Positions 8,802 to 15,005 of a DNA stretch of 64,000 nt are shown here, piece by piece. Each line of letters begins with the position of its first letter. The stretch's first letter is position 1. Under the pieces are notes generated by a model. The model did no database searches. It had not been told where the DNA came from and worked only from the letters and a program-made list of their open reading frames with translations. A program made the position numbers and the translations under genes. This stretch comes from Candidatus Bathyarchaeia archaeon (GTDB lineage: Archaea > Thermoproteota > Bathyarchaeia > 40CM-2-53-6): positions 160,001 to 224,000 of the forward strand of contig JBEKVV010000001.1 in NCBI GenBank assembly GCA_049513715.1, read 5' to 3'.

Positions 8802-8984
8802 TGCTGCGCGTCGGTATGAGGCACTGGCCGCGATCGCGGAAGGATTTAAGGAAGTGGATGTTTCCTTGGGGATTAGGGGCGGTGGTCCAGACCGCGAGTC
8901 AACCCGCGTGGGGACAACTTGGTCTAAGATAGCGCGAGACGCCTTAAAACCGGTCTCGGGGCCAGTTGCCTGAAACGGCGAGCA
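8802..8984 (+). ncRNA. Candidate structured non-coding RNA, family not recognised
   Basis: A long closing helix plus three internal hairpins in an intergenic gap. G-U pairs favour the + strand. Confidence 0.55.
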
Positions 8985-9103
8985 CACCGGTGATCGAGGG
9001 TTCAAAATGATCGCAAACGATCATGACAATCCCTCCCGCCCCACCAATATGATGAGAACAAAGCCAAGATGGACGGCCTCCTTAATGGTGAACCTCAAGC
9101 TGA

Positions 9104-11991: not shown

Positions 11992-12645
11992 CTACCTGAA
12001 TCTCGTTCCGCATCTGTCGCAGAAGCTAGCATAGTACGCTAGTGGTGCTCCGCAGGTTGGGCACGAACCAAAGGCCCCGGGTTGTTGGAAGGGCACTTGC
12101 TGTGGTTGCGGGTAGTAGGGTTGTGGTGCAGGTTGCGGAAAAGCTGTGGGTGGGTAGGCAGCTGGCGGGTATGGGGGCGAGGCAGGAGGATACATTGGTA
12201 CGCCTGGTCGTGCTATTAGGGGAGGTCCAACGGGTCGCCCGAAGAAAGCTCGCACATTGGCCGTGCTGAGGTAGGCGAGAATCAGCCCGTAGAAGATTAT
12301 CGGGATGACGTTGGCAAGGCTACCGAAAATCAACCCCACGATTGCGATTATGAGGCCGATAATTGAGATTATCATTGTAGCTGTCCACGCCCACGGCCGC
12401 CCGGTCCAGAGCCCGTAAGCCAACACGAATGAGATGAATCCGAACGCGAAATAGGCTATGGCTAGAGGAATCAGAAAGAAAGCGAAGGCCGCTGAGAACC
12501 CCATGCCAACAAATGATAGGGCGAACGCGTAAACCGCCAAAAGAATGATACCGATCAATATGTCAATGAAACCAACAAGGATCTGCAGTACTGTCAGAAT
12601 CGTAACGCCAGGCAGCCTTGGAGGCCGGAACATGACTGGGATCAT
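11992..12645 (-). CDS. Membrane protein with Pro-rich linker and C-terminal zinc ribbon
   Basis: 4 TM segments, YGLWTGRPWAW, CPTCG...FCDRCG. Confidence 0.8.
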   Translation of the reverse strand: MIPVMFRPPRLPGVTILTVLQILVGFIDILIGIILLAVYAFALSFVGMGFSAAFAFFLIPLAIAYFAFGFISFVLAYGLWTGRPWAWTATMIISIIGLIIAIVGLIFGSLANVIPIIFYGLILAYLSTANVRAFFGRPVGPPLIARPGVPMYPPASPPYPPAAYPPTAFPQPAPQPYYPQPQQVPFQQPGAFGSCPTCGAPLAYYASFCDRCGTRFR

Positions 12646-12728: not shown

Positions 12729-12880
12729 TGGTAGCGGGGGGTGGATGTTCGGGCGTTCTTGTGGCCTTTCGAACCACCGTTTGAGGAGCCTTCGCGGCTC
12801 AATCTCAGGGTTTCTCGCCAGGATATGAGCCCTCCGCACTGAAGGGTTCTGCGGGTTAAACCTGGCTACCCCACCCCGCT
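12729..12880 (-). tRNA. Initiator tRNA-Met(CAU) with four introns (12832-12848, 12812-12823, 12780-12801, 12746-12767) and encoded CCA
   Basis: A1-U72 acceptor AGCGGGG/CCCCGCT, three G-C pairs in the anticodon stem, CAT at 12825-12827. Removing the four BHB-flanked inserts gives a 79-nt cloverleaf. Confidence 0.9.
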
Positions 12881-13364
12881 ACGTTTTGGAACCCGCAGAG
12901 ATTGTTGCCGAGCTACAGGCTTGTTGCCACGCTAGATAAGTTTGTTTCGTAAGCGCACGAGAAAGGAATCGGCAGTTCATCCAAACTGTAAGCTGAACCG
13001 CGACCGAGCCTTGGACCGTTTGTCAATTTTCTCAAAGGCCATCCAGTGGGAGTGTACCACGCGCTTCGCTTCGCGGGACAAAGAGTTCGGCTGCTATGAT
13101 TCTTCGCCTCATGGAACGTTGAGTGAAGACTTTCCTGATTTCCCAAGAATTCTTTCCGTTATCGTTTGTGGAGGCCTCTGCAAACTACCGCAGTTGGAGA
13201 ATTTTCCAGCCGGTCTCTGCCGCGGTCGCTCTGCGGAATCTTTTACACTCTCTTGACAACTTTCCTGGTGTAGATGTATGCCTTTGCTGTAAATAAGTTA
13301 ATACTTGCGCAATGGGTACGGGAAGCCTTATTCATCTTGTTTCATGCGTTTCCCCAGATCAGAA

Positions 13365-13679: not shown

Positions 13680-15005
13680 TTACGGCTTATGCCATATCCC
13701 TGAGGGTGGTTTGCCGCTCCAGTTCTTTTCGTGGCCGTACCTGTGCAAAGGTTTAGTCAAATGCCTGTGCGCCTTAGGTGTGGGAATATAAATTCCCGGT
13801 TGTAACGTTCTCCGTTGCCGAATGATTCGCTTCACGGCTTTGGGTTCTTTCAGATGGCATTTTTCACATCTGAACCCTTGCTTTTTCCCTGCCGATTTCA
13901 TGTGCTTGCCGCACCGTGAGCAGACGGGGTTTTCGATTTTGAGTTGTTCCGTTAGGCGGTCGACTCTAATCTTCTCCAGATTGACATTCAATGGCTGGTC
14001 GCTTTCGTTATTTCTCACTCCACCAAAAACTGTCACCTCGTCCCCTGCAATCAATTGTGCAATGATATTGCAGAGTCTGCCCGTCGGTTCGAATGCGGCA
14101 CACTGTATCGTCCCTTCATCGTAGTCTAGTGAAAAGAACACGTGCCCCCCACGAATCCTGTGAGGGTGTTTAGCTAAGACACCGTGCAGAATGATAGGAC
14201 GGTTTGGTTTAACTGTTGGGTGAATTGGGGTTTGAAGAAAGTGGTTTTCAGTTCCATGGTTTGTACGAAAGATGACCCACCGTTCCACGGGTTCTCTGAT
14301 TTTCAGTATTCGGAATGCGCGTTTGACGGCCTCTGGGTTTTCACCCCGCAAACCCAACAGAACGGGGTCAGGCCCGTGGGGTGTGATAAGCACTCGCTTG
14401 TTCTCTACGTCATAGTTGTTGAATGTTTCAGGGGATGTGAGGCGGTCCATTTTGCGGACTGATTTTTCGTCAACAAGCCTCCGCGTCCCCCAGTTCTTTC
14501 TGTCACGGTATGCCACAAGTTCGTAAGTGTGGTCGCCTGCAAGGGTTTGTCCAACGGCGGCCAGGGCTCCAATGAGGCCCAAGCTGGTTCCATATGCTGC
14601 AGCCTCCGCTCCGGATGACTTGAGGCAAATCATGGCATCGCGGCCGGTTAGGACATCCCACAACGCTCTCCGAGAAAGTTGCTTTATCGTGGCCGACGGT
14701 TCGCCTTTGACGAAGACTGCCGCAGGGTCCGTGCCTGGGTGGCCGAAATGGCTGTTGCGCTCAATTTCCTCGAGGACGGCTTCCAGGATTGGGTTGTAGA
14801 AGTGGCTCGGGATTTCAAGCCGCAGAGCTACGGCGGCGTTTCCCCGCGTCTTGTAAGGGATGTTGGGATTTAGGCGAATGATGTTGGGATAATCCGTGAA
14901 CTTGATTCCCATGTCCGAGAGCTTTTCGACCAAGCAGGCTGCAATGTAAGTGGTGCAGCCCCCCTTCGTCGAGTCTGTATCATCTATTCCTATGTTTAGT
15001 TGCAC
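13680..15005 (-). CDS. tiaS: tRNA(Ile2) 2-agmatinylcytidine synthetase
   Basis: IGIDDTDS, GGCTT, RLNPNIPYKTRGN, PHGPDPVLLGLRG, OB fold, zinc ribbon, RHLTKP. Confidence 0.97.
   Translation of the reverse strand: MQLNIGIDDTDSTKGGCTTYIAACLVEKLSDMGIKFTDYPNIIRLNPNIPYKTRGNAAVALRLEIPSHFYNPILEAVLEEIERNSHFGHPGTDPAAVFVKGEPSATIKQLSRRALWDVLTGRDAMICLKSSGAEAAAYGTSLGLIGALAAVGQTLAGDHTYELVAYRDRKNWGTRRLVDEKSVRKMDRLTSPETFNNYDVENKRVLITPHGPDPVLLGLRGENPEAVKRAFRILKIREPVERWVIFRTNHGTENHFLQTPIHPTVKPNRPIILHGVLAKHPHRIRGGHVFFSLDYDEGTIQCAAFEPTGRLCNIIAQLIAGDEVTVFGGVRNNESDQPLNVNLEKIRVDRLTEQLKIENPVCSRCGKHMKSAGKKQGFRCEKCHLKEPKAVKRIIRQRRTLQPGIYIPTPKAHRHLTKPLHRYGHEKNWSGKPPSGIWHKP

Follow-up and report, generated by a model that had tools for sequence, protein, structure and literature searches.

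A predicted single-copy initiator tRNA gene with four BHB introns in an intron-rich genome of the Bathyarchaeia

The initiator tRNA locus

The window, meaning the whole 64-kb stretch of DNA analysed, carries on its minus strand a 152-nt initiator tRNA (iMet) gene, read from 12880 to 12729, whose exons of 32, 8, 10, 12 and 17 nt are separated by introns of 17, 12, 22 and 22 nt at tRNA positions 29/30, 37/38, 47/48 and 59/60 (Table 1). The exon/intron parse bears out the original prediction, which had placed inserts of these lengths at 29/30, 37/38, in the variable loop (47/48) and at 59/60. Removal of the four introns leaves the 79-nt RNA that had been foreseen as a clean initiator tRNA, and ARAGORN reads this spliced product as tRNA-Met(cat) with a complete cloverleaf. 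An A1-U72 pair together with three consecutive G-C pairs at 29-31/39-41 marks archaeal initiator tRNAs; the spliced product has the A1-U72 pair, three G-C pairs in the anticodon stem (29-31 with 39-41) and an encoded CCA.

The gene is flanked on one side by a membrane-protein-like ORF and on the other by short ORFs followed by a TiaS-like gene, which matches NF040849 at 416 bits, below the cut-off of 600. The 7-mer of the putative TATA-like box is also present within the 45 nt upstream shown at 4 of 19 other loci, and a sigma-70 promoter scan, a type unsuited to archaea, found no promoter. A split or permuted tRNA was ruled out, the five exons being collinear inside 152 nt. Group I/II self-splicing introns, which carry a ribozyme core of hundreds of nucleotides, were likewise ruled out; the inserts measure only 12-22 nt and the window has no Rfam match.

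Table 1. Coordinates of the features described in the text. Positions without a prefix are those of the window; prefixed positions refer to contigs of the genome.
Feature	Position	Strand	Description
Exon 1	12849..12880	-	tRNA positions 1-29, with A1; same in all 40 distinct genes of this layout
Intron 1, 29/30, 17 nt	12832..12848	-	central helix takes C24-C27 (D-stem and anticodon-stem bases); outer helix 1 bp, inner helix 2 bp
Exon 2, 8 nt	12824..12831	-	positions 30-37, anticodon CAU
Intron 2, 37/38, 12 nt	12812..12823	-	relaxed motif: central pairs 3/4, inner helix 1 bp
Intron 2 interior CCUGGC, near-invariant	12817..12822	-	complementary to D-loop positions 15-19
D-loop hexamer G15-G19	12861..12866	-	predicted pairing partner of intron 2 interior
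Exon 3, 10 nt	12802..12811	-	positions 38-47
Intron 3, 47/48, 22 nt	12780..12801	-	central helix 4 bp, inner helix 5 bp, outer helix 2 bp
Exon 4, 12 nt	12768..12779	-	positions 48-59
Intron 4, 59/60, 22 nt	12746..12767	-	strict BHB; outer helix is the T-stem
Exon 5	12729..12745	-	positions 60-76, U72, encoded CCA
Putative TATA-like box TTATCTA	12933..12939	-	about 55 nt upstream of iMet gene; possible promoter element
Membrane-protein-like ORF	11992-12645	-	flanks iMet gene
TiaS-like gene	13680-15005	-	0.8 kb upstream of iMet gene
tRNA-Pro(CGG)	8876-9046	+	introns 15/16 (8891-8917), 25/26 (8931-8948), 37/38 (8961-8984), 59/60 (9007-9029)
CAU gene, iMet	C1:172732-172880		as parsed in the genome
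CAU gene, second	C1:289579-289685		
CAU gene, third	C2:233766-233870		
tRNA-Trp(CCA)	G000:C1:372221-372443	-	five introns
tRNA-Asp(GUC)	C4:144551-144653	+	acceptor-stem intron at 68/69
tRNA-Gly(CCC)	C1:573337-573481	-	acceptor-stem intron at 3/4; C at position 55
tRNA-Gly(UCC)	C2:419820-419913		C at position 55
tRNA-Ala(UGC)	C1:159272-159385		C at position 55
tRNA-Thr(CGU)	C9:19552-19663		C at position 55
Probable tRNA-Ser(GGA)	C1:416362-416479	+	unsolved by the parser
tRNA-Lys(UUU) partial duplicate	C4:150473-150589	+	3' part, 2 kb downstream of the gene
tRNA-Pro(GGG) 3'-end copies, examples	C1:892312, C3:166053, C3:181344, C4:149704, C5:206494, C9:3868		

Copy number and detection of the gene

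The gene is the sole iMet copy found in the 2.79-Mb assembly, where exon 1 (with up to 4 mismatches) and exon 5 (with up to 2) each match one place; a genome search with the 8-nt exon 2 pattern returned a background level of 54 matches against 77 control matches. Three genes with a CAU anticodon were parsed in the genome, the other two of which we take, by their sequence traits, to encode elongator Met and Ile2. The suspicion that standard scanners would miss the gene proved right for ARAGORN and the Rfam tRNA model, neither of which finds anything in the unspliced window, and the gene is absent from the 37 RF00005 matches of the genome at E up to 10. Our own parser, which fits a tRNA profile and permits BHB-bounded inserts, scored the gene at 72.4, whereas its best value on the reversed genome was 39.2.

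It is scarcely credible that the locus is a pseudogene, an assembly artefact or a chance parse, with the working initiator tRNA encoded elsewhere: although the genome is a bin of 11 contigs, 8.8% contaminated, it holds no second exon 1 or exon 5, and 40 distinct genes from independent assemblies keep the exons invariant while drift is confined to the intron loops. Judged from sequence, the gene is almost certainly a genuine initiator tRNA gene whose transcript is spliced. One RNA run yielded 4 contigs, of which none covers the iMet gene, and no joints, and so speaks neither for nor against expression.

BHB motifs and intron boundaries

The central helices proposed for introns 1 to 4, namely CCGC/GCGG, CTCA/CGAG (regarded as relaxed), TGAG/CTCA and TTCG/CGAA, were confirmed, with 4/4 pairs in introns 1, 3 and 4, each flanked by two 3-nt bulges, and 3/4 pairs in intron 2. 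Among 20,000 letter shuffles per intron, 4/4 pairs arose in 0.7%, 1.5% and 3.7% for introns 1, 3 and 4 respectively, and at least 3/4 pairs in 10.8% for intron 2. Flanking helices of at least 2 bp are found in all four motifs (intron 1 inner, 2; intron 2 outer, 4-5; intron 3 inner, 5; intron 4 outer, 5), and the inner helix of intron 1 is just 0-1 bp long in 30 of 43 related introns. Since 31 BHB-like motifs can be drawn in the G+C-rich precursor, such a motif by itself is weak evidence. Intron 2 matches only the relaxed class (3/4 pairs, 1-bp inner helix), which often arises by chance according to a preprint (bioRxiv 10.64898/2026.10.13.758758), and its position is fixed by relatives.

The four positions can be pinned without recourse to the motif, because relatives have intact junctions and many inserts allow no slippage. 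The 16-nt exon-exon junctions 1 to 4 are uninterrupted in 69, 44, 31 and 4 of 167 distinct iMet parses, a total in which five genes read differently by two parser versions are counted twice, and inserts without slippage amount to 41/63, 11/92, 84/90 and 31/107 at the respective positions. Exact junctions are seen where intron 1 is missing (L019-L022), where intron 2 is missing (L018, L021), where intron 3 is missing (L016 and L017, of the same genus) and where intron 4 is missing (L022). Complete 4/4 central helices occur in 43/43 distinct introns at 29/30, 73/73 at 47/48 and 101/105 at 59/60, against 1-5% in shuffles; these tallies come from a parser that uses the motif, and the junction check is independent of it.

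Intron load of the genome and splicing enzymes

In the genome as a whole the parser yielded 44 tRNA genes with 106 introns (2.4 per gene), a tally from an earlier parse that contains a few doubtful boundaries, leaves Gln(UUG) and Ser(GGA) unsolved and included mis-calls, among them a Thr(UGU) gene taken for Ser and a false early intron assigned to elongator Met. One gene is uninterrupted, while 7, 18, 10, 7 and 1 genes carry one, two, three, four and five introns, the four-intron genes being iMet, Pro(CGG), Pro(GGG), Gln(CUG), Glu(CUC), Leu(CAG) and Lys(UUU). The Pro(CGG) gene lies in the same window (Table 1) and likewise has four introns in L011, L012, L015 and L017. Five introns interrupt Trp(CCA), as they do 20 of 24 other parsed Trp loci; of the 30 Trp loci examined (L139-L168), 5 were unparsed, and together with the gene of the genome under study the survey gives five introns in 21 of 25 parsed loci and three in 4. 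The 59-nt 37/38 intron of Trp(CCA) presumably resembles a box C/D guide, as in euryarchaeal Trp introns. On the strength of the genome-wide tally and the Trp loci, the iMet gene exemplifies a condition found throughout the lineage.

Some further features of these tRNA genes were noted. Asp(GUC) and Gly(CCC) bear introns within the acceptor stem, and four genes (Gly UCC, Gly CCC, Ala UGC, Thr CGU) have C at position 55, usually U, which may reflect a tolerated variant or editing. A probable Ser(GGA) gene was located, and a Gln(UUG) gene was not found in the genome by the parser.

Two genes of the EndA family are encoded in the genome. The first, EndA alpha (186 aa), finds its best match among two-subunit archaeal enzymes (3p1z_B, E 2.5e-41, which we take to come from A. 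pernix) and keeps Tyr123, His131 and Lys162, and its Lys39 aligns with the loop lysine K44. That lysine has been linked to broad specificity and cleavage of relaxed motifs (PMC6379350). In the second (192 aa) the alignment shows no catalytic His, and its matches to beta-subunit models are weak; RtcB is also encoded. By its gene sequences the host is equipped with a predicted broad-specificity EndA (an alpha subunit with the triad and the CSL lysine, plus beta) and a ligase. Taken together, the locus is very probably a single-copy initiator tRNA-Met gene with four BHB introns, likely excised singly by the two-subunit endonuclease and joined by RtcB, with the 37/38 intron predicted to leave last.

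Distribution among relatives

A DNA search of 40 relatives recovered the iMet gene in many of them. Of 100 loci, 96 gave an iMet parse and 4 remained unparsed. Within the genus, 8 of 23 genomes yielded no iMet gene, and all four introns are present in 13 of the 15 genomes with a recovered gene; the remaining two, G002 and G006, are without the 47/48 intron. Other groups of the order carry subsets (47/48 + 59/60; 37/38 + 59/60 + 71/72; 29/30 + 47/48 + 59/60; 37/38 + 47/48 + 59/60), and outside the order 41 of 42 sampled loci were parsed, with 0 to 2 introns each. Among metagenome loci, 110 of 120 were parsed, 37 of them with the four-intron layout of the iMet gene, and in the same analysis 10 of 125 loci were unparsed. 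In total 157 distinct iMet genes were obtained, of which 40 share the layout and all splice to one identical mature sequence, 5 have a different four-intron layout and none has five introns. Genes with early introns are under-sampled in these counts, because the search patterns demanded an unbroken start of exon 1, and mis-calls of the parser with shifted boundaries (L016, L022, L070, L226, L256) were set aside.

In an RpoB tree of 30 genomes, built from one gene by a quick search with SH-aLRT only, from bins up to 10% contaminated and with two RpoB copies in G002, both G002 and G006 are nested within the four-intron genus (SH-aLRT 97-100), and a four-intron genome is the sister of G002. Because of this nesting, the sequences suggest that the 47/48 intron was precisely lost after the four-intron state had arisen. 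The introns look like tolerated insertions that have been repeatedly gained and precisely lost within the order.

Other unusual iMet arrangements were encountered in the survey. The second four-intron layout, in L084-L088 (genomes G030, G038, G028, G033 and G036), has introns at 4/5, 22/23 and 37/38 and at either 47/48 or 59/60; the central helix of its 4/5 intron includes two leader bases ahead of position 1, for which reason that intron would need cutting before RNase P removes the leader. In genus g14 (L059-L065) a 30-nt iMet intron sits at 71/72, one base short of the end of the acceptor stem.

Folding of the precursor and predicted order of splicing

Folding prediction puts the cost of forcing the central helix in the full precursor at 1.2, 5.4, 0.3 and 0.1 kcal/mol for introns 1 to 4; the cost for intron 2 falls to about 4.0 kcal/mol after removal of intron 1, and intron 1 costs 4.75 kcal/mol if its bulges are forced open too. 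In the predicted precursor fold, positions 9-11 pair with 39-41 and the helices of introns 3 and 4 are formed with probabilities of 0.84 and 0.87. The folding model performs poorly here, assigning the mature D-stem a probability of 0.25, and it underrates the central helices of canonical introns (below 0.25 in 24 of 26 in the genome), so the high cost of intron 2 is partly a general bias.

On this modelling, the precursor would begin in a fold other than the cloverleaf. Pairing of 9-11 with 39-41 would leave C24-C27 and U42-G45 available to the motifs of introns 1 and 3, and the intron 4 motif would be completed by the T-stem. Cleavage would come easily at introns 3 and 4, whichever is first, and less quickly at intron 1. 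Intron 2 has the weakest motif, one that depends on the anticodon stem; as this stem is dismantled by the folding of introns 1 and 3, most cleavage of intron 2 would follow theirs. As the model still disfavours the intron 2 motif once the other three introns are gone, this last step would need tertiary contacts or the enzyme. We therefore lean towards a preferred order, with introns 3 and 4 leaving before intron 1 and intron 2 last, understood as a preference and not as a strict sequence. A comparable case is tRNA-Ile(UAU) of C. merolae, in which the 37/38 intron was shown by experiment to be removed after the D- and T-arm introns (PMC3728597), as is predicted here; the system differs in having a eukaryotic enzyme, three introns and an elongator tRNA.

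The original prediction had argued that neighbouring motifs share exon bases and that this implies ordered splicing. The sharing is real, in that the outer helix of intron 2 (the anticodon stem) shares G30-G31 with intron 1 and C40-U42 with intron 3, and the outer helix of intron 3 shares G49-G50 with the T-stem. The forced order does not follow; the overlap only makes folds compete, because the modelling leaves introns 3 and 4 open to cleavage in all splicing states, and nearly all subsets of the introns occur in relatives.

It could also be that there is no real order, a broad-specificity endonuclease cutting motifs as they form and all routes reaching the mature tRNA. This agrees with the fact that all four true motifs can be drawn in the full precursor before any splicing, with the many subsets of the four introns found in natural genes and with C. 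merolae, where two of the three introns leave in either order (PMC3728597). It seems rather unlikely, however, given that the outer helix of intron 2 overlaps both the bulge and outer pair of intron 1 (G30-G31) and the helices of intron 3 (C40-U42), and that the predicted cost of intron 2 lies 4-5 kcal/mol above that of introns 3 and 4.

Conserved interior of intron 2

The motif CUGGC is present in intron 2 of 49/49 distinct genes having both the 29/30 and 37/38 introns, with 37 identical introns and five variants in all, as against 37 versions of intron 1. Distinct interiors of the short 37/38 introns in the genus number 15/16 for Glu(CUC), 13/14 for Ile(GAU), 11/13 for Ile2 and 13/17 for Arg(UCG), and 2/16 for iMet. 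From these comparisons, the conservation of the intron 2 interior is evidently real and specific to the iMet 37/38 intron.

One tentative explanation for this conservation is that splicing order is loose and the intron is kept either for a modification enzyme or guide RNA that reads the anticodon arm or as the result of a recent allele sweep in the genus. The peculiarity of the conservation to iMet intron 2 is in keeping with it, and intron-dependent modification is known for other tRNAs (PMC12168002). Against the guide RNA stands a genome search for stretches of 10-12 nt complementary to the region of exon 2 and intron 2 and followed by a box D-like word, which gave two short, unconvincing sites, and against the sweep stand the five intron variants, which would be unexpected had it been very recent.

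Another possible explanation starts from base pairing, since CCUGGC is the exact complement of D-loop G15-G19. By pairing with the D-loop, the interior of intron 2 would keep the splice motif of that intron hidden as long as any of introns 1, 3 and 4 is still in place. This grip would lock the precursor into a non-cloverleaf fold in which the other three introns are exposed, and release would come when the tRNA elbow claims G15, G18 and G19, so that order is enforced and the anticodon finished last. The near-invariance of the interior, set against the variable intron 1 and the variable 37/38 introns elsewhere, speaks for such a device, as does the pairing itself: the invariant C that spoils the central helix would pair with G15, the helix between intron 2 and the D-loop has a predicted probability of 0.95-1.0 in all 8 tested states that keep intron 2, and the predicted fold switches when the central helix is made perfect in silico. 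With a null aimed at the D-loop, 1-4 of 300 random interiors match the observed pairing.

We nevertheless regard this device as doubtful. Under a fair null that allows pairing with any exon part outside the anticodon loop, 67/1000 random interiors reach the observed value and 108/1000 come near it, and 12/26 canonical introns of the genome show a similar predicted alternative pairing. Covariation is absent because the D-loop does not vary in these genes. The intron 1 motif is helped by just about 0.8 kcal/mol (median, 49 related genes); intron 1 occurs without intron 2 in 14 genes, and L181 has this type of intron 2 and no intron 1. If the device were nonetheless true, one intron would order the splicing of the others and provide a quality checkpoint for an essential initiator tRNA.

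Two further roles were considered and not retained. A clamp for intron 1 was dropped as a main claim in view of the same small energetic effect and the counter-example genes. A guard against an off-target motif (A14-C17 with G30-U33) was not significant, the natural interior giving 7.4 kcal/mol against a random median of 5.9 kcal/mol, with 33/200 random interiors as good or better; removal of intron 2 first lets the cost of the off-target motif fall to 1.7 kcal/mol.

Relation to known systems

Archaeal tRNA genes are described with up to three introns, one of which may need removal before a second motif forms (PMC8450103), and the same maximum per gene is given in PMC4033280 and PMC6379350. 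Pyrobaculum calidifontis, of the Thermoproteales, has 71 introns in 46 tRNA genes, or 1.54 per gene, and the maximum given there is three in one gene (PMC8450103, PMC4033280), as compared to four in the iMet gene and 2.4 per gene in its genome. Among three Asgard genomes, 92-95% of tRNA genes contain introns, over half of them several (PMC11291895), and Asgard archaea have been reported to average 2.20 inserts per gene, with up to five in one (bioRxiv 10.64898/2026.10.13.758758). Asgard archaea are a different lineage from the Bathyarchaeia host, and share with it the interruption of nearly all tRNA genes, repeated gains and escape from standard software. The usual maximum of three given in the original prediction is upheld by PMC8450103 and PMC4033280 and exceeded by the five of the preprint; as for four introns being unusual, they are routine here, in 7 of 44 parsed genes (plus one with five) and in the iMet gene of 13 of 15 genus genomes.

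A term search of the main text of that preprint gave no 'Bathy', 'initiator' or 'iMet'. Searches of a mostly open-access literature turned up no publication that describes tRNA introns in Bathyarchaeia or an initiator tRNA with four introns; five-intron tRNAs are on record for Asgard archaea. The nearest initiator case is that of Thermofilum pendens, where an essential initiator tRNA also occurs in BHB-disrupted form, with a T-arm junction; there the gene is circularly permuted, whereas the present gene is collinear with four cis introns (PMC4090602). Sequential removal of several tRNA introns is already known (PMC3728597, PMC8450103).

The iMet gene is a multi-intron BHB tRNA gene above the textbook maximum, below the highest reported count and common in its genus. 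With higher counts on record and ordered removal already documented, the gene is moderately surprising, and more so only if the pairing of intron 2 with the D-loop does control splicing. What stands out is that an essential single-copy initiator tRNA tolerates four splicing events with inner exons of 8, 10 and 12 nt, and that a large group of Bathyarchaeia is as rich in tRNA introns as Asgard lineages, a fact hidden by standard finders. The gene also offers a test case, its exons being invariant and the number of introns in its relatives ranging from 0 to 4 across a dozen or more layouts, the second four-intron layout among them; with layouts so varied, natural variants exist for the study of splicing order, gains and precise losses.

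tRNA-derived fragments

Partial copies of tRNA genes were also observed. In G011 (L066, on C438) a second copy of the iMet upstream region and the first 23 nt of the gene, divergent afterwards, may be an attachment-site remnant or an assembly artefact. The 3' part of tRNA-Lys(UUU) is duplicated downstream of the gene with 86% identity over 121 nt; two introns are found in the duplicate in diverged form. It looks like what is left of an attachment site and agrees with the intron-exchange route proposed in PMC3293823. Outside tRNA genes lie some twelve short copies (23-50 nt) of the tRNA-Pro(GGG) 3' end, together with several from Ser tRNAs, all likely remnants of integrating elements.
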